This document shows positions 56-38,060 of a stretch of 38,997 nucleotides of DNA, in pieces. How positions within the stretch are numbered: position 1 is the first letter of the stretch; each line of letters opens with the position of its first letter. This stretch comes from a virus. The DNA is taken from the IMG/VR virus record IMGVR_UViG_3300012933_000306, positions 1 to 38,997 of that record; one strand, written 5' to 3'. The notes below the pieces were generated by a model. It was not told the origin of the DNA. It did no database searches and was given only the letters and a program-made list of their open reading frames with translations. Position numbers and translations under genes: made by a program.

Positions 56-2424
56 CAACAGGTAGACGTTTTGATTTATTAGTTAATCGTTTAGTGGATA
101 TAAATGATCCAGATATTATACAGATTGGGGGTACTCCTACGCCTCCTATACCTATTGGGGGTAGACCTCCTCGAAATTATACTTACATTGCTGAAATGCA
201 AATTGATTTATTAGCTGAAGAACGTATTTTTTTAGTAATGAAAAGATATCAAACAGCTAGCGCAGATTATACAATGGTTATTCAAGGGGGTACTCAAGCT
301 AGTTTAATTGATCCTAAAGGACTTTATAATACGAAATTAAATTTTCGTACAAATACAAAAAAAACAGCTACAACGGCTTTAGGCTTTTCGCCTTTAACTA
401 TTTGGAAAACCTTAATTGATAAAATTACTGAAGGTCAATTTACTGCTGAAAGTGTTTATTTTACGGAAAATAAAAATATTAAATTATTTTCAGGAGAATC
501 TTTAAGGAATATACCTGCTGCTAAGTTTAAGACAAGCCTAGAAGATTTTTTCAATTTTTACGATGCTATTTTGCCAATGGGCATAAGAATAGACGGAAAT
601 GTGGTTTATATGGAGCCGTTAACAGATCTTTATGGCGATGGCGCAGACATTTTAGACTTTGGAGAGTTAAGCAAAGTAGAAATAAATTATGCTTTTAATG
701 CTTTAGCTAATTTATCTAAATTTGGGCATACTACTTTAACATCTGAAGAAATTGCAGGCATTAGCGATTTTAATGGCATAAATCAATTCCTGTTACCTAT
801 AACAGCTTTGAAAAAAGAACTTAATAAAACAGGTAAGTACATTGCTTCTGTTTATGACATAGAGGTTACTAGACAAGCAACAAGCGTTTTAAACAATGAT
901 AGTCAAAAAGCTGATAACAATATTTTTGTTGCTAATGTTTCAGAAGATACAGACGAAAATGGCAATAAACTTCTTTATAGAAAAGTTTATAGTGAAATAA
1001 GTGGGGTAGTTAATCCTGATGATATTTACAATATAGAACAATTGACTCCAGCACGTATGCTTAGAGCAAATGGCCCAATACTTCGTCCGATTGTAGAACA
1101 ACAAGGTAACAATGCAATTCAATTCATATCTAGCAATAAGAACGGGCAATTAATTACAAATGAAGGTGGGGTTATTATAGATGAAAGGGCAAATGTGCCT
1201 TATACTGATTTAGGGCCTGGCTTATGGCATGCCTTAGATTTAAACTTTGTGGTTCCTACTCCTATGGCTTTTGCAAGCCAATTAGTTGCAGTAAATAAAG
1301 GCATTTGTAAAGGGCGATATATGGGCAATGAGATTAAGTTTTTGCCAATTGGCGAAATGAAATCTAAGCCTGCAACCGAGGAAACGCAGGAAATGCGAAT
1401 GAGGCTATCCACATTAACGCCTTTAGCTGTAATTAATTCTTTATCTTTGGCTGGTACATTTTCAATTGACAGTATGAATAACACTATTTTTATATCCGAC
1501 TTAAATAGCTTTCATTTTAGTAAGGTTAATAACGGCCTTCCTGCAAGTGTTACCTATAAAGGCATTTATGATGCTCCTTTTGAAAATAGACAAAATTTAA
1601 ACGAGTACCCTCGTAAATACTTACAAAAATGGGCTAAAACAGAGGAATTAGTGCAATTGCAATTTGTAACTAGCGGCTATGATCTTTTATCAGTAGTTCT
1701 AGTTGACTATTATGGTAATCTAGTTGAAGGACATACCTGCTCTATTGCAACTAACCCAGGAGTACTTTTACCTTATGTTTTACAAGAAGTTGAAATAGAT
1801 ATTAGCGGTTTAGATGACGGCATTTATAAATGGGTTATTATGGATGGACAAAATAAACTATTCCGTTCAGAGTGGTTTAATTTAGCAGAGGAGTGGTACG
1901 ATACTTTCCTATTTGAGTATTCAGATACTACAAATAAGTACAATACATATTTTAGCCCTACTTTTACACCAAAAATTCGTGTAGAAGCTAACTTTTTACC
2001 TTTGCAACCCCAATCAGAAAGCACAGAATATGTTGATGATATACATGATGTTGAAATGCTAGATGGCACAACTTGGGATCAATTAACATTGGTTTTAGGT
2101 GGTAAAAGCATTATTCCTGGGGAGAGTCAAGGCATTCCTGATTGGATGGCTAGAAAGCTTAATTATATTTTGCTTTTAAACCAATGCGTTATTGAGAATG
2201 TAAAATATAGCAAAGCAAAAGCAGAAAACATTGAACCTGTACTTACTAGCTTTATGCCGCTTAATGTTTACACAATTGATGTTGTACCTGCTACTGCTGG
2301 AACAGGATTAGTTTACGAAGGCGTACCTACTCCTATGACAACAAGCTTTGTGGCGACTATGGATGCAAGTAGCTTTGGTATTGCAGGGGATGAAATTATT
2401 GATATTGAAGTAATAAATGATTAA
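1..2424 (+). CDS. Tail tip/baseplate structural protein, 3' part of the wrap-around gene
   Basis: Frame 1 is open from nt 1, and the track ORF 94..2424 only begins at an internal GTG. The gene lies directly downstream of the tape measure gene on the circular map, the usual position for distal tail/tail-associated proteins. Confidence 0.8.
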   Translation, partial: KKIATSPSLFNIDLFFYTSTGRRFDLLVNRLVDINDPDIIQIGGTPTPPIPIGGRPPRNYTYIAEMQIDLLAEERIFLVMKRYQTASADYTMVIQGGTQASLIDPKGLYNTKLNFRTNTKKTATTALGFSPLTIWKTLIDKITEGQFTAESVYFTENKNIKLFSGESLRNIPAAKFKTSLEDFFNFYDAILPMGIRIDGNVVYMEPLTDLYGDGADILDFGELSKVEINYAFNALANLSKFGHTTLTSEEIAGISDFNGINQFLLPITALKKELNKTGKYIASVYDIEVTRQATSVLNNDSQKADNNIFVANVSEDTDENGNKLLYRKVYSEISGVVNPDDIYNIEQLTPARMLRANGPILRPIVEQQGNNAIQFISSNKNGQLITNEGGVIIDERANVPYTDLGPGLWHALDLNFVVPTPMAFASQLVAVNKGICKGRYMGNEIKFLPIGEMKSKPATEETQEMRMRLSTLTPLAVINSLSLAGTFSIDSMNNTIFISDLNSFHFSKVNNGLPASVTYKGIYDAPFENRQNLNEYPRKYLQKWAKTEELVQLQFVTSGYDLLSVVLVDYYGNLVEGHTCSIATNPGVLLPYVLQEVEIDISGLDDGIYKWVIMDGQNKLFRSEWFNLAEEWYDTFLFEYSDTTNKYNTYFSPTFTPKIRVEANFLPLQPQSESTEYVDDIHDVEMLDGTTWDQLTLVLGGKSIIPGESQGIPDWMARKLNYILLLNQCVIENVKYSKAKAENIEPVLTSFMPLNVYTIDVVPATAGTGLVYEGVPTPMTTSFVATMDASSFGIAGDEIIDIEVIND

Positions 2425-9963: not shown

Positions 9964-10950
9964 ATGGCGAATATAAAACTAACGCAAAAACAAAAATTAG
10001 CTATTGAGTATCTTAATAAGTTTCCTAGCATAAGTAAAAATTCTATTGCAGCTAAACTATACAATGCTCACGAAACTTTATTTCATAGCGTAGAAAACGC
10101 TAGAACGCAATTAAGACAAGTAAGCGGCACACTAGGCAAAAGCTCATCTAGACAAGTTAAAATAACACATACTCCTGATTTGCCGCCTAGTAAAATGCAA
10201 AATAGAGAATTTGTAGATTTGCCTGTTAGTTCAAATAACATTTTATGGCTTTCAGATATTCACATACCGAATCAAGATAATGCCGCTTTAAAATTGGCAA
10301 TTGACTACGGGGTTAAAAATAAGATTAATTGTATTGTGTTAGGTGGGGATATATTGGATAATACGCCTTTTACAAATCACGATGCGCCGCCTCCAGGAAA
10401 AGACGATGTAGTTGAATGGTTTGAGTATTGCGAAATATTTTTAAGCCATTTACGCACTAAATTTCCTAAAGCACATATTATTTGGATTGAAGGCAATCAT
10501 GATAACTGGTATATGCGCTATTTAATGAAGAAAGCGCCAATGCTTTTTAATGATGAATATTATAGATTGCCTCAAAGATTAAATCTAAAAAAATACAATG
10601 TAGACTTCTACGAACAGCATATAGTTGTAAGAGCAGGAAAGCTGCACATGCTGCATGGCCATACAATCGTTAGAGGCTTTATGGCACCTGTAAACGCTGC
10701 AAGAGGGGTATTTATGAGAGCCAAAAGTTCAATGATAATCGGCCACGTACATAGCAGTAGTAACCATTCTGAAACAAATATTAAAGAGGAGCCTATTAGC
10801 TGTTGGAGTGTTGGATGCCTTTGCACTTTAGCGCCTGATTATGATCCGCACAATACTAAACACAATGTAGGTTTTGCACATATTATAGTTGAAAAGAATG
10901 GAGATTTTGAGGTACTTAATAAAAGAATAATTAACGATAGAATACACTAA
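9964..10950 (+). CDS. Calcineurin-like metallophosphoesterase with a ~90-aa N-terminal extra (HTH-like) domain
   Basis: Motifs LSDIHIPNQD, GGDILD, GNHD, GHTI and GHVH match the DxH / GDxxD / GNH[DE] / H / GH metallophosphatase signature. Confidence 0.85.
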   Translation: MANIKLTQKQKLAIEYLNKFPSISKNSIAAKLYNAHETLFHSVENARTQLRQVSGTLGKSSSRQVKITHTPDLPPSKMQNREFVDLPVSSNNILWLSDIHIPNQDNAALKLAIDYGVKNKINCIVLGGDILDNTPFTNHDAPPPGKDDVVEWFEYCEIFLSHLRTKFPKAHIIWIEGNHDNWYMRYLMKKAPMLFNDEYYRLPQRLNLKKYNVDFYEQHIVVRAGKLHMLHGHTIVRGFMAPVNAARGVFMRAKSSMIIGHVHSSSNHSETNIKEEPISCWSVGCLCTLAPDYDPHNTKHNVGFAHIIVEKNGDFEVLNKRIINDRIH

Positions 10951-10953
10951 AAA

Positions 10954-11388
10954 ATGCGCTTCGAGAAAGTATATAGCATGGGTAAAATCTTAAGTAATGA
11001 TACTTATGAGGCTTTAATGTTTCAAGATAGAAACGGCCCTGCTTTTAGAGAATGCGAGAATGAGTTTAAAGACAATCGGGATTGGTGGATAATGCGCAAT
11101 AAAAGGAATGAGATAGTGGCTTATTGTGGTAGTGCTTATTCAGAAGGTATTGCTATTTTCCTACGTGCCTGGGTAATTAAGTCAAAAAGAGGCAAAGGAT
11201 TGCAAAAACACATGATTAAATTGCGTTTAAATGCCGCTAAACAGCGTAAATGCAGAGTAGCTATAACTTATACAATGAAATGGAATTACCCAAGTATGAA
11301 CAATTTAATAGGTTCTGGGTTTAAGATTTATGGCCCTTCATGGGAATACGGGGGTAAGGAAATGGTTTATTTTAAAAAAACTTTGTAA
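10954..11388 (+). CDS. GNAT-family N-acetyltransferase
   Basis: 144 aa. The motif-A-like segment VIKSKRGKGLQKHMI (R/Q-x-x-G-x-G/A) and overall size fit the GNAT fold. Confidence 0.7.
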   Translation: MRFEKVYSMGKILSNDTYEALMFQDRNGPAFRECENEFKDNRDWWIMRNKRNEIVAYCGSAYSEGIAIFLRAWVIKSKRGKGLQKHMIKLRLNAAKQRKCRVAITYTMKWNYPSMNNLIGSGFKIYGPSWEYGGKEMVYFKKTL

Positions 11389-32503: not shown

Positions 32504-33433
32504 ATGGCATTCGATAATCCATGTCAGTTAGATGAAAACATCGTAAATACTGGCACAGAATGTAACGAGGCAATGGGGCCAACCGCATTGATCTTGTTAG
32601 GCGATACCAACATCGAGTACACTCCTGAACAAGTTGAAGGCAGTATGTTAGATGTTTTAGAAACTGCTATCCATGCAGCTGGTAAAGCTCGTGTTTACCC
32701 ATTATTTGGGAATAACGCACCAATCCGCGACATCCAAAACACAAACGGCGATAACGTTTTAGAAGAAATGCCTGATGGTTCTACTGCATTCGTAAGAAGC
32801 GGTAAATTCACTCGTTTGTTCTTAACTAAAGAGGGTGGCGATTGTTTAGGTAAAATCCTTTACCAAATGAACGGATCAACTTTAGGCTTTATTGAGGTGG
32901 ACGCAAACAATAAAGTTAAGATGCGTAAATTAGCAAACGGCAATTACAGCTTCATCCCTGTAAACATGATCGATGCTCCTTTACCTTCTTTGGCTTCATT
33001 TACAGAAGTGTATAAAAATGCTTTCAGAATGAACTTTGATCCTAAGTACTACATTAAAGAAGCGGTTACATTCGTGTCAACTGAAGATTTAACAGGCCTT
33101 AGCGGATTAGTAAGTGCTGGAGTATTTGCAGGTACACAAGCTGCATCAAGCACTTTTGTTTTTGTAAAAGTGCAATCACTTTGCGCTAATACTAACTTAG
33201 TGGCTGAATTCCCTACTCAAATTGTTGAAGTAGACAATTTTGTAGTGAAAGAAGGTAGCACTGTAATCACTCCTTCAGCTGTTGCAGTTGTAGGCGGAGA
33301 AGTTAAAATCACTTTTGCAGCTCAAACAAGTGGCGACGTTATCACTGTAACAGGTGCAGCGGCTTCTGTTTTAAATGCAAATGGTATCACTGGCTTTGAC
33401 ATTGTATCAGGCGTGTCTATCACTCTACCATAA
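32504..33433 (+). CDS. Major tail protein (putative) with a C-terminal Ig-like segment
   Basis: 309 aa, followed by a strong terminator and then small ORFs and the tape measure gene. The C-terminal beta-rich segment VVKEGSTVITPSAVAVVGGEVKITFAAQTSGDVITVTG looks Big/Ig-like. Confidence 0.65.
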   Translation: MAFDNPCQLDENIVNTGTECNEAMGPTALILLGDTNIEYTPEQVEGSMLDVLETAIHAAGKARVYPLFGNNAPIRDIQNTNGDNVLEEMPDGSTAFVRSGKFTRLFLTKEGGDCLGKILYQMNGSTLGFIEVDANNKVKMRKLANGNYSFIPVNMIDAPLPSLASFTEVYKNAFRMNFDPKYYIKEAVTFVSTEDLTGLSGLVSAGVFAGTQAASSTFVFVKVQSLCANTNLVAEFPTQIVEVDNFVVKEGSTVITPSAVAVVGGEVKITFAAQTSGDVITVTGAAASVLNANGITGFDIVSGVSITLP

Positions 33434-33457
33434 GGTAAAGCATTAATAGGAAAAAGG

Positions 33458-33487
33458 CCCCGATTGCAATATATCGGGGTTTTTTAT
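33458..33487 (+). terminator. Rho-independent terminator after the major tail gene
   Basis: CCCCGAT-tgcaatat-ATCGGGG (7-bp perfect stem), preceded by AAAAAGG and followed by TTTTTTTA. Confidence 0.8.
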
Positions 33488-33517
33488 TTACTTTTGATTA
33501 GATAAAAATAAAAAATT

Positions 33518-33748
33518 ATGGCAAAAATTAAATTACATGGCGTTTCTATCAACACAGAAGCGTTTAAAACGGCTAAATCTGTAAGTGAGGCTAACTTGTT
33601 TGCACATTTAGGAGAAGGCGCAGAAGCGGCTGAAAACGACCTTTTAGCAGTATTAAACATTGTGGATAAGAAAGCTAAAAAGGAAAAAGTTGAAGTAACT
33701 GTTGAAAACTTATCTGAAGTAGAAGAAAATGGCAATACAGGGGCTTAA
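33518..33748 (+). CDS. Hypothetical small protein (76 aa)
   Basis: ORF in the track. It overlaps the next ORF by 20 nt. Confidence 0.6.
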   Translation: MAKIKLHGVSINTEAFKTAKSVSEANLFAHLGEGAEAAENDLLAVLNIVDKKAKKEKVEVTVENLSEVEENGNTGA

Positions 33749-34184
33749 AAACCTAGCGGTTGGATTGGCTTCTATCGACATGGAGGAGGAGCAATACCGA
33801 ATCGTAGAAGATAATCGGGATGAAATTGTTTTGGCACAAGCCGAAGTATTATCAGAGGGTAAAGACAAAACAGGCCAACCTAGACAAGATCAATACCGAC
33901 CTTTTACTATTCAGTACAAACAGGAATTTGGTAAAGGCTTAGGACGTGTAGTTGACCGAGTTACGTTTTTTATGACGGGCAATTTGTATTATAGCTTATT
34001 TGCAAGGGTTACAAAACGCACTTATAGCGTTGAATCGCCTTTGCCAACCTATGGTAAAATGCTTGAAAGAATTGGTAAAAACAATTTCGGCCTTGACCCA
34101 CAGAGGCAAATAGCGTTTAGGGATGGAATTACAATTCCCAGACTTAGACAGGTATTTTTCGAAAAAACAGGGTTACGCTTGTAA
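33729..34184 (+). CDS. Hypothetical protein (151 aa), in the tail-assembly region
   Basis: ORF in the track with its own ATG. No motif recognised. Confidence 0.65.
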   Translation: MAIQGLKNLAVGLASIDMEEEQYRIVEDNRDEIVLAQAEVLSEGKDKTGQPRQDQYRPFTIQYKQEFGKGLGRVVDRVTFFMTGNLYYSLFARVTKRTYSVESPLPTYGKMLERIGKNNFGLDPQRQIAFRDGITIPRLRQVFFEKTGLRL

Positions 34185-34198
34185 TGAGGTAACCGCAA

Positions 34199-34324
34199 AC
34201 AGACGTGGCAGATTGGAAATGCTTATAACCGCCATCGCTAAAAAACCATAAGGCGGTTATTGACTACATTGGCGACAGGTAGCACCTGAATAAGTGGTTG
34301 TAGGTTCGAATCCTACCGTCTGTT
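34199..34324 (+). ncRNA. 126-nt tRNA-like element (canonical acceptor, D and T arms; aberrant 76-nt core; no recognisable anticodon arm)
   Basis: 7-bp closing helix ACAGACG (34199-34205) / CGTCTGT (34317-34323). U8 at 34206. D stem GCA (34208-10) / TGC (34220-22) with A14, G18G19 (34215-16) and A21. T arm GTAGG-TTCGAAT-CCTAC (34300-34316). Between the D and T arms lie 76 nt, including a 9-bp hairpin ATAACCGCC (34225-33) / GGCGGTTAT (34252-60) with an 18-nt loop. No CCA is encoded. Confidence 0.6.
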
Positions 34325-34338
34325 CAAACAACAACAAA

Positions 34339-34914
34339 ATGCAAGAACTAAGTTTCTCAACTTGTACTATAAACGAGATGATAGGCTTTATGTTTGACGG
34401 TAAGACGCACCCGAATTGGGATGAAATTTACTTAGAATATATTGACACATCTGGAATAGCCATAACGCAAGAATATGAATTGCTATTAGGCATTCACAAT
34501 TTACAAACTAGGTTAAATGCCGTACCTGAATACGTAAAAGTACAGACTGTTTGTTGGTACAATTTTAGACGTTTACATCCCGTAGCTACTGAACGATTAG
34601 CTAGATACGGTTATAAAATGCCTAAGACTGGCAACCCAATACCTGTATTAGCAAGAATTGAAAGCAAAGAAAAAAGGTTTCATCACGACATTAAGGTAAA
34701 AGAAGCCCAACTTGAAAAGCTAAGAGCATCACAAAAAACGGGCAAAGAAGGCAAAGAATCAAGACGTGAATTTATACGTTTACTAAATCATTTAGGCACA
34801 AAATACAGAGTTGATCGTGATAAAACTACGTGTGAAGAATTAGCTTTAATGGTAAAAGATATGAATGATGAAGCTTTAGCACAACAAATGGAGAGTATGT
34901 CAAGAGGAAAATAG
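34339..34914 (+). CDS. Hypothetical protein (191 aa), possible tail assembly chaperone (the track ORF starts at GTG 34294)
   Basis: ATG at 34339 (MQELSFSTCTINEM...) follows an A-rich leader. The GTG-extended N-terminus would be encoded by the T arm of the tRNA-like element. It lies directly upstream of the tape measure gene. Confidence 0.65.
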   Translation: MQELSFSTCTINEMIGFMFDGKTHPNWDEIYLEYIDTSGIAITQEYELLLGIHNLQTRLNAVPEYVKVQTVCWYNFRRLHPVATERLARYGYKMPKTGNPIPVLARIESKEKRFHHDIKVKEAQLEKLRASQKTGKEGKESRREFIRLLNHLGTKYRVDRDKTTCEELALMVKDMNDEALAQQMESMSRGK

Positions 34915-34940: not shown

Positions 34941-37900
34941 ATGGAGCAAAATATTATTGAGTTAGGGTTTGATATGGCCAAATTTACGCCTCAACAGAAA
35001 GAGGTGCTAGATGGCTTAAATCAAGTAATTGCATCAGCTGAAAAGATTGAGTCGCTTAAAATAGGCCCGTCTGTTTCTCCTTCCTGGAAAGCCTTAAAGG
35101 ATTCAATTAGCGCGCAAGCCCTTGAACTTAAGAAATTGCAAGATGCAAATGTGCAATATGTTAAAAGCCAAGAAGCTTTGACAAAAGCTGAAACGGCTCA
35201 AATTGTGCAAATGCAACAAAAAGAACGTTTAGCCCAACAAGAAATTAAAACTAAAAAAGCATTAGCGGCTGAATCAAATGCTAGCGCAAATGCAACAGCT
35301 AAAGAGGCTAAATTAATTGATCAGCTTACAAATGAGTATTTACAGCTTAATAAAGCCTATAACGATGCAGTTTTAAAGTATCGTAATCTATTTTTAGTAA
35401 AAGGAGAAGATGCAGCAGTAACTAAGCAACAATTGCAAACCGTTACTGAATATCGTACCATTTTAGATAAGATGGATAAAAATTTGAATATACACACTAG
35501 AAACGTGGGTAACTATTCAAGTGCTTTTAACGGATTAGGAATGTCAATCCAACAAGTAGGCCGAGAATTGCCAACACTTGCAATTAACTTCCAAATGTTT
35601 GCATTGGCTATTTCAAATAACTTACCAATACTTGCGGACGAATTAGGAAGGGCTAAAAAGGAAATTGCAGCGCTTCAAGCAGAAGGTAAAACCGCGCCTA
35701 GCCTATTTTCACAAATAGGAAAAGCGATATTTAGTTGGCAATCTGCCCTTACTATTGGCATTACTTTGTTTACTGTTTATGCAAAAGAGATAGGGGATTT
35801 TGTAGGGTCGTTAGTTTCAGCAGAATATGCCTTGAAAAAGGAAGCTGAAGCACAAGCTAGAAGGAATGTTTTAATGTTAGAATACCTTAAGATAATGAGG
35901 GATATTAACCAAACAAATGATTTCACAAATAACCAATATGATCAAACAATTAGGTCAATGGAGGCCGAAATAGGATCAGCAAGGTCATTAGGTAAATCTA
36001 AGCTTGACTTATTAACTTTAGAGGAAAAATTAGCTGTTCAAAGAGAATTAACAGCCAATAAAGCATTTTTAGAAAGCGGCGGTTTTACAGAATTAGGCGA
36101 AAGAGAGAAAAAAGTTACTTCCTTACGTATTGCTTTGCTTGAAAACAATAGAGCCTTAGAAAAAGATATAAATAATAAAAGACTAATTGATCAAAAGAAA
36201 ACTTTAGAGGAAGAACTTAAAAATGCAACGGATAGCTACGATATGCAATTTAAGATAGTCGATGAATTTTCTAGGACTTTTAATCAAGTAAATGAAAAGC
36301 GTAATGAATTAGCTACTTTTCTTGAATCAGAAAAGACTAAAAATATAATGGATAACATTACTAATGAGGCTAACATGCAGATAGCTAAAAATGAAGTTGT
36401 GTTAAATAGCGAAGCTTCTACTGAAAAGCAAAGATTAGCAGCTCTACAAAGTAATTTTAGTGAACGTAAAAAAATTATACAAGCGGAACTTGATTATGCT
36501 AAAAAACAGCCTGGAGCTTATAATGCAGATGGAAGCGCAACTTCTGAAACTAAAAAAGCAATATTAAAGGCAAATGCTGAAACATTAGACGCTACAATTC
36601 AATTACAGGATAAAACTTTCCAAGTAAAAGAGGATTATCGTAAAAGAAATTTAGCCGCTGACTCATCTATACTAAAAAGCCAATTAGCTATTCAGGATGA
36701 ATTTGCTAAAAACTTATTAGCTAGAGAAACAGCATCTATTGAAGATCGTTTGTCTGCCCAAAAACAATTAATAGCTGATCAGGAAACTGCTGAAACGGAT
36801 AGGTATAAAATGGCTATTGATAAGAAGGGATTGACGGATAAAGAAGTTGAGGCCCTTGAAAAAGAGCATCAAACCAATTTAGCTTTAATCAAAATTAGAG
36901 GCACGGTTTCAACTATTGAGCTTGTTAGAAAATTAACCTTAGAAGCTATCCAAAGAGATGGAAATACAGTTGAAACCGCTAGTTTAGAGGCTTTAACTAA
37001 AGACTATAACGCTTTAGCTGATAACTTAGAGAAAAAGTTAATCACACTTAAAGAGTTCAATCAGCAAAAAAGAATTATAGATCAAAATTATACTGACCAA
37101 AGCTTAAATACGCAATTAGATGCAATTGATAAGGTTATTGAGGCTGAAAAGAAAGCTGATAAGGATATTACGGCATTGCTTAAGCAAAGAGAAGCAATTG
37201 TAAACAATATTGCTAAAAATAGATTAAGTAAGGCTGAAGATGATGCTAAAATTCAGAAAGATATCGATAAGGCTATTTGGGATGCTGCTAAACAATTGGC
37301 CTTTGAAACGCTTGATGCGATACAGGTAATGGTTACAGCTACTTATGATAATGAAATAGCTAGGTTGCAGGAATTACAAAAAGCTAAAGATGAATATTAT
37401 AGCACTGAAATAGATAATATTAAAAATAGTTCATTATCAGAAGAAGAAAAAATAAGGAGAACTAAAGTGCTTGAAGCTGAAGCAGCTCAACAACGTAAAA
37501 AAATAGATGCTGAAATAAAACAAGAAAATATTAAAAAGGCGCAAGCTGAACGTGAATTTCAGATATTTAAAATTATAGGTAATACTGCAATAGGTATAAC
37601 AAGTGCTTTATCTTCTACACCTCCGAATCCCGTTTTAGCTGCTATTATTGGGGCTATTGGCGCAGTGCAATTAGCTAAAACAATTGCTACTCCTATTCCT
37701 AAATATGCAGATGGTACATCAAACCACCCTGGAGGTTTAGCAATATACGGAGAAGCTGGGCCAGAGGTAGTAAAAGAGCCAGGAAAGGACGCTTATTTAG
37801 TTAATCAAGCCACATTAAGCGCTTTACCTAAAGGAACTAAGGTTACTCCAATGGATCAAATTAACCAAGTGATGATGGAAACAATGCTTAAATCACAAGG

Positions 37901-38060
37901 AAGGTTTATGAATAGTGATTCTTACGATAGCAGTTGGGATGTAGCTAGATGGCAAACAAATAGATTAGAAAAGGCTTTAGCTAAAAATGCTAAACGTTCA
38001 AATAGGGTTAATGTGGTACTAAAAAGTTCGCTAGATGTAAACAAGAGTTTTGGTAGATAA
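34941..38060 (+). CDS. Tail tape measure protein
   Basis: 1,039 aa, long coiled-coil, with internal hydrophobic segments. The C-terminal ADGTSNHPGGLAIYGEAGPEVV motif is typical of tape measure proteins. The 0.15 nm per residue rule implies a tail of about 150 nm (inference). Confidence 0.9.
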   Translation: MEQNIIELGFDMAKFTPQQKEVLDGLNQVIASAEKIESLKIGPSVSPSWKALKDSISAQALELKKLQDANVQYVKSQEALTKAETAQIVQMQQKERLAQQEIKTKKALAAESNASANATAKEAKLIDQLTNEYLQLNKAYNDAVLKYRNLFLVKGEDAAVTKQQLQTVTEYRTILDKMDKNLNIHTRNVGNYSSAFNGLGMSIQQVGRELPTLAINFQMFALAISNNLPILADELGRAKKEIAALQAEGKTAPSLFSQIGKAIFSWQSALTIGITLFTVYAKEIGDFVGSLVSAEYALKKEAEAQARRNVLMLEYLKIMRDINQTNDFTNNQYDQTIRSMEAEIGSARSLGKSKLDLLTLEEKLAVQRELTANKAFLESGGFTELGEREKKVTSLRIALLENNRALEKDINNKRLIDQKKTLEEELKNATDSYDMQFKIVDEFSRTFNQVNEKRNELATFLESEKTKNIMDNITNEANMQIAKNEVVLNSEASTEKQRLAALQSNFSERKKIIQAELDYAKKQPGAYNADGSATSETKKAILKANAETLDATIQLQDKTFQVKEDYRKRNLAADSSILKSQLAIQDEFAKNLLARETASIEDRLSAQKQLIADQETAETDRYKMAIDKKGLTDKEVEALEKEHQTNLALIKIRGTVSTIELVRKLTLEAIQRDGNTVETASLEALTKDYNALADNLEKKLITLKEFNQQKRIIDQNYTDQSLNTQLDAIDKVIEAEKKADKDITALLKQREAIVNNIAKNRLSKAEDDAKIQKDIDKAIWDAAKQLAFETLDAIQVMVTATYDNEIARLQELQKAKDEYYSTEIDNIKNSSLSEEEKIRRTKVLEAEAAQQRKKIDAEIKQENIKKAQAEREFQIFKIIGNTAIGITSALSSTPPNPVLAAIIGAIGAVQLAKTIATPIPKYADGTSNHPGGLAIYGEAGPEVVKEPGKDAYLVNQATLSALPKGTKVTPMDQINQVMMETMLKSQGRFMNSDSYDSSWDVARWQTNRLEKALAKNAKRSNRVNVVLKSSLDVNKSFGR

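Follow-up and report, generated by a model that had tools for sequence, protein, structure and literature searches.

We found a tRNA-like element of 126 nt (34199-34324, plus strand) in the window, the 38,997-nt stretch of viral DNA analysed here. We interpret it, with a probability of about one half, as the descendant of a tRNA gene that is now kept as a structured, non-decoding RNA and that would probably be excised by RNase P and RNase Z. The element lies in a 154-nt intergenic gap (34185-34338) between an upstream stop codon ending at 34184 and an ATG at 34339, 14 nt from each of the two flanking genes, both on the same strand. The Rfam tRNA model (RF00005) matched 34199-34324 over model positions 1-71 of 71 with 36.2 bits against a gathering score of 29 (E = 3.7e-4, computed for the whole window, both strands and 4227 families), and this was the sole match in the Rfam scan of the window. 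In this alignment, 71 nt replace the 17-nt anticodon arm. As the preliminary description had claimed, the only T-loop of the genome is inside the element: the pattern GGTTCGAATCC, with one mismatch allowed, occurred once in 39 kb. The folding z-score of the element was -3.45 relative to shuffled sequences.

The acceptor stem is formed by ACAGACG (34199-34205, element positions 1-7), which makes seven perfect pairs with CGTCTGT (34317-34323) in the Rfam tRNA alignment. U8, G9 and the D arm, GCAG-AUUGGAA-AUGC (34206..34222, the arm itself at 34208-34222), were aligned with posterior probabilities near 1; A14, G18, G19 and A21 are present, pair 13-22 is a G.A mismatch, and the only D-arm variation among variants is a U15 to C change in the loop. 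At the other end, the T arm, GUAGG-UUCGAAU-CCUAC (34300..34316), carries G53, U54, U55, C56, G57, A58 and C61, is invariant in all six variants, and is followed by the acceptor 3' strand CGUCUGU and a discriminator U at 34324 (together 34317..34324). CCA is not encoded at this 3' end, where the bases after the discriminator are CAA, and the Bacteroidota tRNA-Arg genes that we retrieved likewise have no encoded CCA. The sequence and the Rfam alignment thus bear out the intergenic gap, the closing helix, U8 and the two arms as first described, except that the spacing between D arm and T arm is 77 nt (element positions 25-101) and not 76 nt.

Within these 77 nt, the sequence and a constrained fold delineate a first core hairpin (34225..34260), with a 9-bp stem pairing AUAACCGCC (34225-34233) with GGCGGUUAU (34252-34260) and an 18-nt loop, AUCGCUAAAAAACCAUAA (34234-34251). 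A second core part of 39 nt (34261..34299, element positions 63-101), described from sequence, fold and variant comparison, holds a CAG/CUG helix (34276-34278 with 34286-34288) as well as the polymorphic positions 68 (34266; A, C or U), 71, 82 and 85. A long-arm model for positions 64-101 was contradicted by three polymorphisms, and a possible pseudoknot of 37-41 with 73-77 is invariant among the variants. The fold energy with the tRNA arms enforced was -39.0 kcal/mol, versus -41.3 kcal/mol for the unconstrained optimum, a rod-like fold in which the T arm is destroyed. An internal duplication was also considered for positions 49-64 and 91-106, which match at ~11/16 positions by eye, but this is not beyond chance by a rough estimate.

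A usable anticodon arm is missing from the element. No contiguous 5-bp/7-nt arm with U33, an anticodon and a purine at 37 directly follows position 26, no tRNA identity set is recognisable (A1-U72, U73, no G3.U70), and 126 nt is outside the tRNA length range of about 70-95 nt. ARAGORN called no tRNA or tmRNA in the element at default settings, with or without introns; its intron, tmRNA and mitochondrial modes returned nothing credible, the 80% threshold giving a poor tRNA-Ala with a 50-nt intron. No other Rfam family matched in or around the core at E <= 10 except for spurious sub-threshold matches. Judging from its sequence, the element is very probably incapable of decoding, and the original view that it is tRNA-shaped at the acceptor end and elbow, has no anticodon arm and probably does not decode is supported by the Rfam alignment, ARAGORN and a deletion scan.

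The same deletion scan supplied the best case for a working tRNA whose anticodon stem is split by a 51-nt insertion (positions 27-77) that is spliced out or tolerated. The best of 1353 internal deletions scored by ARAGORN, removal of 27-77, gave a tRNA-Ala(agc) with a score of 112.5, in which a perfect 5-bp stem (UUCAG/CUGAA) closes a GUAGCAC loop with U33, A37 and the anticodon AGC, and in which the polymorphic core positions 68, 71, 82 and 85 all fall unpaired. However, one good stem is unsurprising with 1353 trials, the would-be U33 (position 82) is C in variants L005 and L007, and five of the six variants have U at position 85, which would be anticodon base 36, so that near-identical phages would differ in having an Ala or a Thr tRNA. 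This tRNA would have a variable loop of 9 nt and, to our knowledge, A34 is unused for the AGC-type (Ala/Thr) anticodons in bacteria. Known bacterial tRNA introns are group I introns, far longer and located in the anticodon loop, and none was detected; specifically, we rejected a group I intron-split tRNA given that the insert measures about 51-54 nt versus more than about 200 nt, that no intron family matched at E <= 10, and that the ARAGORN intron option was negative at default settings. Decoding via removal of 27-77 is largely refuted by positions 82 and 85, and an interrupted but working tRNA seems very improbable to us.

Even less probable is a mini tmRNA-like molecule, a reading that comes from the 18-nt loop of the first core hairpin. 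This loop can be read as AUC GCU AAA AAA CCA UAA, with a GCN 'resume' codon, three codons and a stop, and as GUC GCU AGU AAA CCA UAA in L146. With its (A/G)UC-GCN context and an in-frame stop right at the loop end, this frame recalls those of tmRNA tags, yet the reading was made post hoc on 18 nt. In addition, the ARAGORN tmRNA search was negative, the best Rfam match was the tRNA model, and the G3.U70 alanine identity pair is absent, this pair being A-U or G-C. The element also has a normal D arm, no tmRNA-type pseudoknots and another topology.

Comparison among variants points to purifying selection over all 126 nt, core included. The element differs from L146 at 10/126 positions while third codon positions of the flanking genes differ by 36% (binomial P = 2.5e-13), and from L145 at 3/126 positions against 21% (binomial P = 1.4e-9). 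Across all three lineage pairs, element divergence was 4.5-8.6x below that at third codon positions of both flanking genes. The core alone had 7/77 differences relative to L146 and 3/77 relative to L145, and the arms had 3/49 relative to L146. The genomes are mosaic, with other stretches 95-100% identical, and recent recombination could explain part of this low divergence. Acceptor pair 3-123 shows a compensatory change, from A-U in the window to G-C in L146, and the two L146 changes in the stem of the first core hairpin, A27G and C34U, both lead to G.U wobbles, its other changes being in the loop. Under a five-helix model, every substitution in the six variants is unpaired, a G.U wobble (27, 34) or compensatory (3-123). 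Given the low divergence across 126 nt and an acceptor pair changed on both sides, the element is not a decaying pseudogene. Covariation itself amounts to one compensatory pair in six variants from three lineages, a signal equalled in 76 of 500 shuffles and thus underpowered for both core models. The preliminary description had looked to related phages for conserved helices: these are kept, with the one compensatory pair, but the closest relatives outside the clade have no element.

Using the upstream 151-aa tail protein as query for relatives, we observed a present/absent distribution. The element is limited to a small clade that comprises the window, near-identical contigs, and relatives with upstream proteins 96% and 82% identical. 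Relatives at 65-72% upstream-protein identity have a gap of 3-13 nt and no element. Given that these close relatives do without it, the element is accessory and dispensable for the operon. In two relatives at 63% and 59% upstream-protein identity, the slot is occupied by a tRNA of ordinary size but odd features. In L156/L157, this is a 73-nt tRNA with 45 bits that ARAGORN called as tRNA-Asn(att), with G at position 33, and in L150 it is a 71-nt tRNA-like element with 25.9 bits, below threshold, a CAU loop and a bulged acceptor. Aligned with the window element, both showed general tRNA similarity. Such occupants make the slot a tRNA-gene site with a tendency towards non-canonical content, and because two related phages hold ordinary-sized tRNA or tRNA-like genes there, it is plausible that the element descends from a tRNA gene. 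The earlier suggestion of an interrupted or degenerate tRNA is retained to this extent; the element is not decaying, the whole 126 nt being conserved, and we found no credible removable intron.

The loss of slot content altogether in related phages and the degenerate look of the L150 and L156 occupants could also suit a non-functional remnant, that is, a tRNA gene broken by insertion or duplication and now drifting. This is improbable in view of the low divergence in the three lineage pairs and of changes that are compensatory or preserve wobble pairs. In GenBank phages, only the T arm of ordinary tRNAs was matched and nothing beyond it, and neither the 5' part nor the 3' core nor the first core hairpin had a copy in IMG/VR; one IMG/VR match (L171) was due to chance and is a terminator-like hairpin. 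A metagenome scan returned only a viral family that we call L010-type and a tRNA-Trp. The element family is thus tiny, with three lineages, all from uncultured phages.

Many phages integrate into tRNA genes, and the acceptor stem of the element resembles that of Cytophagales tRNA-Arg(TCG), GCAGACG. We nevertheless reject the proposal that the element is an attachment-site remnant or an attP-like mimic of a host tRNA gene, which appears extremely unlikely given that Pfam and PHROGs scans of the 37 ORFs detected no integrase or recombinase, and that a 21-mer spanning the T arm and the acceptor 3' strand was found in the representative genomes of 0 of 185,579 bacterial and archaeal species. A relaxed version of the 21-mer retrieved only tRNA-His genes (mostly from Roseibium, Pseudovibrio, Pannonibacter and relatives) and tRNA-Arg(TCG) genes (Cytophagales and other Bacteroidota), which share the acceptor stem and have a different T stem. 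Identity to a host tRNA confined to the 3' half, named in the preliminary description as the mark of an attachment site, is not what we observed: the element has both halves of a tRNA, paired to one another, and selection appears to act on the whole element.

The source phage is uncultured and of Flavobacteria type; samples that contain it include ERZ27249480, ERR3489826 and SRR28926337. All genes surrounding the element are on the same (plus) strand. Upstream lies the gene for the 151-aa tail protein (33729..34184; PHROG 6195 'tail protein', E = 6.8e-14). Downstream, a gene for a 191-aa protein (34339..34914) occupies the tail-assembly-chaperone position just before the tape measure gene, as seen from the ORFs; this protein had no family match and no PHROG match. 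It is followed by a tape-measure-like protein of 1039 aa (34941..38060; PHROG 167 'tail length tape measure protein', E = 9.4e-5, plus virion structural PHROGs). A pattern scan revealed no promoter-like or terminator-like sites in or adjoining the element; a terminator-like G+C-rich hairpin followed by a T run is found after a 309-aa gene (33452..33485, plus strand), in a stretch with 100% identity between the window and L146. We also found no support for the concern that annotation pipelines would bury the element in a coding sequence: in the gene calls of seven related contigs, the downstream gene begins at the counterpart of the ATG at 34339 or further downstream, never at the GTG at 34294, so that the element is not inside a called CDS on these contigs.

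In the mechanism that we propose, the element would be transcribed within the late tail-gene transcript, where the acceptor/T-arm minihelix (7 + 5 bp) and the D-loop/T-loop elbow would fold as the top half of a tRNA and offer a substrate to the enzymes that process tRNA ends in the host. The RNase P cut would fall between 34198 and 34199 and, because no CCA is encoded, the RNase Z cut would fall after U34324, followed by CCA addition. The released RNA, of about 126 nt and presumably stable, would display the conserved 77-nt core in the place of the anticodon arm: the 9-bp hairpin, its 18-nt loop, and a further 39 nt. The same cuts would sever the mRNA of the upstream tail protein from that of the 191-aa protein and the tape measure, and the downstream mRNA would keep a 14-nt A-rich leader, CAAACAACAACAAA (34325..34338, plus strand), which precedes the ATG and has a similar counterpart in relatives that do not have the element. 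Such an RNA would be the natural counterpart of the engineered 'tRNA scaffold' RNAs of Ponchon and Dardel (2007), in which the anticodon arm was reportedly swapped for a foreign structured RNA and the chimera processed and stabilised by cellular tRNA enzymes. Both have a tRNA body with the anticodon arm replaced, the scaffold being a laboratory construct and the element being known from sequence only. We know of no natural phage example of a tRNA scaffold.

The closest precedent for the processing step comes from plant mitochondria, where cleavage of t-elements, non-canonical tRNA-like structures, by RNase P and RNase Z yields mRNA ends and stable small RNAs that are sometimes extended by C or CCA (PMC1920247). 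T-elements and the phage element both have a GGTTCRANYCC T arm and an acceptor-like stem and are located between or beside protein genes in long transcripts (PMC1920247), co-transcription being likely for the phage element from its position. One defining feature of t-elements, a tRNA-like fold with an intact acceptor/T minihelix between same-strand genes in a presumably shared transcript, is found here. T-elements are, however, about tRNA-sized, degenerate and organellar and have no large conserved extra domain, whereas the phage element has a 77-nt core apparently under selection, and its cleavage is predicted from the fold.

This precedent (PMC1920247), the intact minihelix and elbow, the location of the element exactly between two same-strand genes at 14 nt from each, and the other non-canonical tRNA-like occupants of the slot in related phages would all fit a purely cis-acting signal. 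RNase P and RNase Z would then cut the late polycistronic mRNA, making the tail-protein message independent of the chaperone and tape-measure message in its stability or translation, and the excised RNA would be a by-product. We consider this somewhat unlikely. Many relatives have the same two genes nearly abutting without an element, so that the operon would not need punctuation here, and a bare signal would not need 77 extra nt, yet the core is about as conserved as the arms (7/77 versus 3/49 differences from L146), which argues that a processing signal is probably not the whole story.

The core shows the same degree of conservation as the arms, which makes it probable that the released RNA serves a function in its own right, for instance by binding a protein or RNA partner or acting as a decoy for one. 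One version of this idea, which we put forward tentatively, is a natural 'tRNA-scaffolded' effector RNA, in which the end-processing and quality-control machinery for host tRNAs would cut a functional 77-nt domain out of a structural-gene transcript, tag it with CCA and stabilise it. The domain would then work in trans, one example being an aptamer or decoy aimed at a tRNA-directed defence of the host or at an enzyme that binds tRNA.

A more specific version of a role in trans is a decoy or sponge for tRNA-directed host factors, including acceptor-end modifiers (toxSAS, GNAT toxins), tRNases and tRNA-modifying enzymes. Counter-defence genes typically show the kind of patchy, accessory distribution that the element has among close relatives, and the whole RNA appears to be under purifying selection. 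Phage tRNAs are documented as countering tRNA-targeting defences (PMC10264068, PMC11555353), and the acceptor stem is read by some defence effectors (PMC11559606). On the other hand, we found no link of the element to any defence system and no anti-defence gene adjoining it, and the feature recognised by most known tRNA-targeting nucleases, the anticodon loop, is absent from the element. We therefore regard a specific decoy role as unlikely. A possible link to the GNAT gene of the phage was dropped, its resemblance to the GNAT beside an L010-type element being at fold level at most. Inside the phage, we found no significant repeat copies or antisense targets of the element, the best complementarity to the core being a 12-mer (E = 0.27).

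Ordinary phage tRNA genes (RF00005) are like the element in acceptor stem, U8, D arm, T arm and discriminator as well as in their patchy accessory distribution; the element differs in its length (126 nt versus about 73-90 nt), in having no 5-bp/7-nt anticodon arm, and in receiving no ARAGORN call. Other tRNA-like processing handles are known from viruses and animals. The TMERs of murid gammaherpesvirus 68 are tRNA-like/miRNA units with RNase P and RNase Z handles in longer transcripts. The mascRNA of MALAT1 is described as a tRNA-like fold within a longer transcript that serves as an RNase P/RNase Z handle, yields a non-aminoacylated small RNA and sets the end of the neighbouring RNA (PMC8457004). 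Both are eukaryotic nuclear or RNA polymerase III systems, and mascRNA, which has no enlarged core, is below tRNA size. Phage T4 encodes RNAC and RNAD, RNAs with tRNA-like ends, in its tRNA gene region. These two RNAs (species 1 and 2) are stable small RNAs made late in infection, with a function that is still unknown (PMC9697503). They have no sequence relationship to the element, which no GenBank phage matches beyond the T arm. The ends of YrlA RNA are in the Ro-binding stem and not in an acceptor stem. YrlA is a non-coding RNA with T-arm and D-arm mimicry, some copies of which are phage-encoded (PMC4201824). We rejected YrlA or another bacterial Y RNA for the element, which had no Rfam Y RNA match at E <= 10 and has its ends in the acceptor stem, in a phage with no Ro60/TROVE protein.

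The L010-type viral family has two stretches in common with the element, the 24 nt of T arm plus acceptor 3' strand and the 5' end, (A/G)CAGACGUG. Its members are also viral, have no anticodon loop and are located 20-25 nt upstream of a protein gene. In contrast to the element, they are 100-118 nt long and have a class II (Leu-like) D loop, GGAAUUGGUAGAC, an encoded ACCA and their own sigma-70-type promoter, and their core, with a G+C-rich hairpin A and a bulged, variable-arm-like hairpin B, is unlike that of the element. They also have A73, and the conserved genes downstream of them are p109, p183, p73 and p221. Given that only the acceptor and T arm are in common, that D arm and core differ, and that the element has neither CCA nor a promoter, we do not assign it to this family. 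The hosts of L010-type viruses probably differ from the host of the element's phage, and the common 21-mer could reflect chance or common descent.

tRNA genes are common in phages, and their roles are debated between codon supply and escape from tRNA-targeting immunity. Here, the parts of a tRNA used for processing and recognition, the acceptor end and elbow, are kept, and the decoding arm is replaced by a larger domain that appears to be selected. This suggests that other RNA functions can make use of phage tRNA genes as carriers or handles. ARAGORN, a standard tRNA finder, misses the element, and only a covariance-model search tolerating large insertions detects it. If it acts as an effector RNA, it would represent a class of phage non-coding RNA not yet described and invisible to tRNA finders, of which the unrelated-looking L010-type family would be a second example. 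If the RNA is excised and stable, the element would provide a simple model for how a lytic phage can make a small RNA without a promoter or terminator of its own and split a late operon transcript, and possibly for how it can decoy tRNA-binding host factors.

The 126-nt stretch at 34199-34324 (+) is a real RNA element. An Rfam search of the whole window returned a single above-threshold match, tRNA (RF00005), at exactly these coordinates (36.2 bits, gathering score 29; E = 3.7e-4; model positions 1-71), with the 17-nt anticodon arm replaced by 71 nt in the alignment. From 34199 on, the sequence reads as an acceptor 5' strand (ACAGACG), U8 and G9, a D arm (GCAG-AUUGGAA-AUGC) followed by UU, a hairpin formed by AUAACCGCC and GGCGGUUAU around an 18-nt loop at 34234-34251 (hairpin 1), 39 nt more, a T arm (GUAGG-UUCGAAU-CCUAC), and an acceptor 3' strand (CGUCUGU) with discriminator U, ending at 34324. 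This anatomy is as given in the preliminary description, which rested on the sequence only; the oversized separation of D and T arms noted there also stands, although we count this core as 77 nt (element positions 25-101, numbered from 34199) rather than 76. The T-loop motif GGTTCGAATCC is unique in the window, as had been claimed, even with one mismatch permitted. While the suggested Rfam search thus scored above threshold, ARAGORN, also suggested, was blank when run on the whole window (0 tRNA, 0 tmRNA), and its intron, tmRNA and mitochondrial modes returned nothing for the element region at default stringency. The element lies in a 154-nt gap between an upstream stop ending at 34184 and the next ATG at 34339, leaving 14 nt on each side.

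The element differs far less among related contigs than the third codon positions of both flanking genes, the reference for our binomial tests. Window and L146 differ at 10 of 126 element positions (7 of 77 in the core) against 36% of flanking third codon positions (P = 2.5e-13), L145 and L146 likewise at 10/126 (core 7/77) against 36% (P = 1.6e-13), and window and L145 at 3/126, all in the core (3/77), against 21% (P = 1.4e-9). Four-fold degenerate sites of both flanking genes differ at 50% between window and L146. The genomes of these relatives are mosaic, with other stretches 95-100% identical, so recombination may add to the low divergence; given that the same pattern was found in three of three pairs, purifying selection on the element, core included, is the better reading of these comparisons. 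The substitutions fit a structured RNA: acceptor pair 3-123 changes from A-U to G-C (compensatory), the hairpin 1 changes A27G and C34U each yield a G.U wobble, and the other variable positions (15, 36, 43, 44, 68, 71, 82, and 85) are all unpaired in our five-helix model. The covariation statistics, which cover six variants from three lineages, are weak: 76 of 500 shuffles score equally well. Position 68 (window 34266) is A in the window, C in L005, L006 and L146, and U in L145, with the core around it conserved.

Folding under the constraint that all three tRNA arms form gives -39.0 kcal/mol, with hairpin 1 and a further long arm. Left unconstrained, the element is predicted to adopt a rod (-41.3 kcal/mol) in which the T arm is lost and positions 23-34 (34221-34232) form a 12-bp helix with 96-107 (34294-34305), GCUUAUAACCGC with GUGGUUGUAGGU, a pairing incompatible with hairpin 1 as well as with the T arm. 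In energy the two folds are nearly equal. Real tRNAs depend also on tertiary contacts and modifications, which such calculations ignore. The predicted 12-bp helix may mark a conformational switch, or be no more than an artefact of the folding. A long-arm model of positions 64-101 is contradicted by the polymorphisms at 68, 71 and 82, while a CAG/CUG helix only (78-80 with 88-90), plus U25/U26 pairing with A91/A92, agrees with all polymorphisms. A candidate pseudoknot between the hairpin 1 loop (UCGCU, 37-41) and GGCGA (73-77) has a sequence invariant among the variants.

The element is almost certainly non-decoding, which the preliminary description had given as probable. We removed each internal segment in turn and ran ARAGORN on the 1353 variants; the top deletion, positions 27-77, gave a tRNA-Ala(agc) with a score of 112.5 (stem UUCAG/CUGAA, loop GUAGCAC). 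We rejected this form: position 82, which would serve as U33, is C in L005 and L007, and position 85, the last base of the supposed anticodon, is U in five of six variants, so that the "anticodon" would flip between Ala and Thr among near-identical phages. To our knowledge, bacteria do not use A34 in such anticodons, which also counts against this form, and we know of no bacterial mechanism that excises a 51-nt insert from an anticodon stem. The tRNA introns known from bacteria belong to group I and sit in the anticodon loop; Rfam detected no such intron in the element. With ARAGORN blank and the sole hidden anticodon arm undercut by polymorphic positions 82 and 85, the earlier failure to find a 5-bp/7-nt anticodon arm is borne out. 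The 18-nt hairpin 1 loop spans exactly six codons, the last of them a stop (AUC GCU AAA AAA CCA UAA); in L146 it reads GUC GCU AGU AAA CCA UAA, the two adjacent substitutions sharing one codon. We give little weight to a tmRNA-like tag frame here: the (A/G)UC-GCN start recalls the tmRNA resume site, but the element has no G3.U70 pair, its D arm is normal, and the tmRNA mode of ARAGORN was negative.

Relatives were fetched by the upstream tail protein, and each stretch from its stop to the next ATG was read. This slot holds the 126-nt element in L003-L008 (upstream protein 100% identical to that of the window), L145 (96%) and L146-L148 (82%). It is empty, with a gap of 3-13 nt, in L149 (72%), L001 and L169 (70%), L167 and L168 (67%), and L152 (65%). 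In L156 and L157 (63%) it carries a 73-nt tRNA (L156:763-836(+), the same in L157) that scored 45 bits in Rfam and was called tRNA-Asn(att) by ARAGORN, with loop CGAUUAA and G in place of U33, a base universal in tRNAs. In L150 (59%) it carries a 71-nt tRNA-like element (L150:1960-2030(+); 25.9 bits in Rfam, sub-threshold) whose loop is CUCAUAA (CAU) and whose acceptor stem is bulged. The 88-nt gap of L151 (51%) contains hairpins, none of them tRNA-like, and L002/L164, L153, L158, L160-L163, L165 and L166 (≤50%) have no tRNA-like element in the slot. Given that some lineages are filled and others empty, the slot is a variably occupied tRNA-gene site whose occupants tend to be non-canonical, and the simplest account of the 126-nt element is that it descends from a tRNA gene. 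Alignment of the three slot types revealed nothing beyond general tRNA likeness. No copies were found in GenBank phages, where matches were to the T arm of ordinary tRNAs only, or elsewhere in IMG/VR; the element is so far confined to one small clade of uncultured Flavobacteria-type phages.

Exact copies of the 21-mer spanning T arm and acceptor 3' strand are also present within a different RNA, on contigs from IMG/VR and from metagenomes. This L010-type family is viral, 100-118 nt long and without an anticodon loop, and has nine distinct versions: L010:3026-3125(-), L011:1673-1783(-), L014:6796-6913(-), L016:2044-2153(-), L017:139-254(-), L138:4752-4860(+), L139:6949-7057(+), L142:11298-11406(+), and L144:2018-2128(+). 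A near-consensus TTGACA/TATAAT promoter ends just upstream of the RNA, which has an (A/G)CAGACG acceptor stem, a class II-type D loop GGAAUUGGUAGAC (like that of E. coli tRNA-Leu), a G+C-rich hairpin in place of the anticodon arm (often UUCG-capped, in some with an AGUA...GAA motif), a bulged, variable-arm-like hairpin, the same T arm as the window element, and discriminator A with encoded CCA (ending ACCA). Compensatory changes occur at nine base pairs. Neither Rfam at threshold nor ARAGORN called these RNAs, and the best Rfam match was a sub-threshold tRNA-Sec (27 bits against 47). They always lie at the 5' end of conserved genes p109-p183-p73-p221, whose function is unassigned, and on some contigs follow a block with radical SAM and GNAT genes. 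The window element shares the 21-mer with this family but differs in D arm, core, CCA and promoter type; the shared 21-mer might reflect common descent or chance. Two tRNA-Trp(CCA) genes, at L143:about 1764-1861(+) and L012:2509-2583(-), also carry the element's T arm and acceptor 3' strand. That of L143 stands in tandem behind another tRNA and has a long extra arm (GAGAGAAAUCUCC), unusual for tRNA-Trp.

The proposal that the element is an attP-like mimic of a host tRNA was rejected: the phage has no integrase, representative genomes of 185,579 species contain no copy of the 21-mer, and the fold has both of its halves, paired with one another. A relaxed pattern matched only tRNA-His genes, mostly of Roseibium, Pseudovibrio, Pannonibacter and relatives, and tRNA-Arg(TCG) genes of Cytophagales and other Bacteroidota; these genes share the GCAGACG acceptor stem, but their T stem is not that of the element. 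The tRNA-Arg(TCG) genes in L024, L026, L038, L040, L055, L064, L065 and others have GCAGACG/CGUCUGU, A73 and no encoded CCA. Of the cellular tRNAs found, these come closest to the acceptor end of the element.

At ~39 kb, the window appears to be a complete siphovirus genome, whose major capsid protein shares 55% identity with its counterpart in Tenacibaculum phage JQ and 49% with the counterparts in freshwater Flavobacterium phages. It encodes a family A DNA polymerase, DUF2800 nuclease, Enc34-type ssDNA-binding protein, VapE-like primase/helicase, SNF2 helicase and RadC, as well as terminase, portal, capsid proteins and holin; no integrase, reverse transcriptase, RNA ligase or tRNA-related enzyme was found among its proteins. 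A calcineurin-like phosphoesterase gene (9964-10950) adjoins a small GNAT acetyltransferase gene (10954-11388); no link between this pair and the element was found, and the similarity of this GNAT to the one near an L010-type RNA is at fold level only. On the plus strand, the element follows the gene for a 151-aa tail protein (PHROG 6195) and precedes those for a 191-aa protein without family match and a 1039-aa tape-measure-like protein. No promoter-like or terminator-like sites were found in or beside the 154-nt gap, the closest terminator-like hairpin being at 33452-33485. That hairpin and the start of a 76-aa ORF fall within 33288-33680, which is 95-100% identical to L146 while neighbouring genes are 72-88% identical, reflecting mosaic recombination or a strongly constrained regulatory region. 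The concern that annotation would bury the element inside a CDS was not borne out: on related contigs, gene callers place the downstream start at the ATG or later, never at the GTG at 34294.

Bacterial RNase P, RNase Z and CCA-adding enzyme recognise an acceptor/T-arm minihelix, the elbow, U8, the discriminator and the 3' trailer. In the element, the minihelix (7 + 5 bp), the G18 G19/T-loop elbow, U8, the discriminator and a CCA-less 3' trailer are all intact and invariant, which points to excision from the late operon. The Bacteroidota tRNA genes retrieved also lack encoded CCA, which fits an RNase Z route. Judged from these features, the element would be transcribed inside the late operon and cleaved between 34198 and 34199 and again after 34324, releasing an RNA of ~126 nt and splitting the tail-protein message from that of the 191-aa protein and tape measure, the downstream message retaining a 14-nt A-rich leader. 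Plant mitochondrial t-elements, non-canonical tRNA-like folds, are excised and divide transcripts likewise (PMC1920247), and the mascRNA of MALAT1 supplies another precedent (PMC8457004).

A bare processing signal needs no conserved 77-nt core; we therefore think that the excised RNA probably has a role of its own, for which a tRNA body would be a natural scaffold. The patchy distribution would suit a decoy for tRNA-directed host factors, as would current work on phage tRNAs and tRNA-targeting immunity (PMC10264068, PMC11555353, PMC11559606). Nothing was found linking the element to any defence system. The element is an oversized, probably tRNA-derived RNA that belongs with the tRNA-like elements and t-elements.
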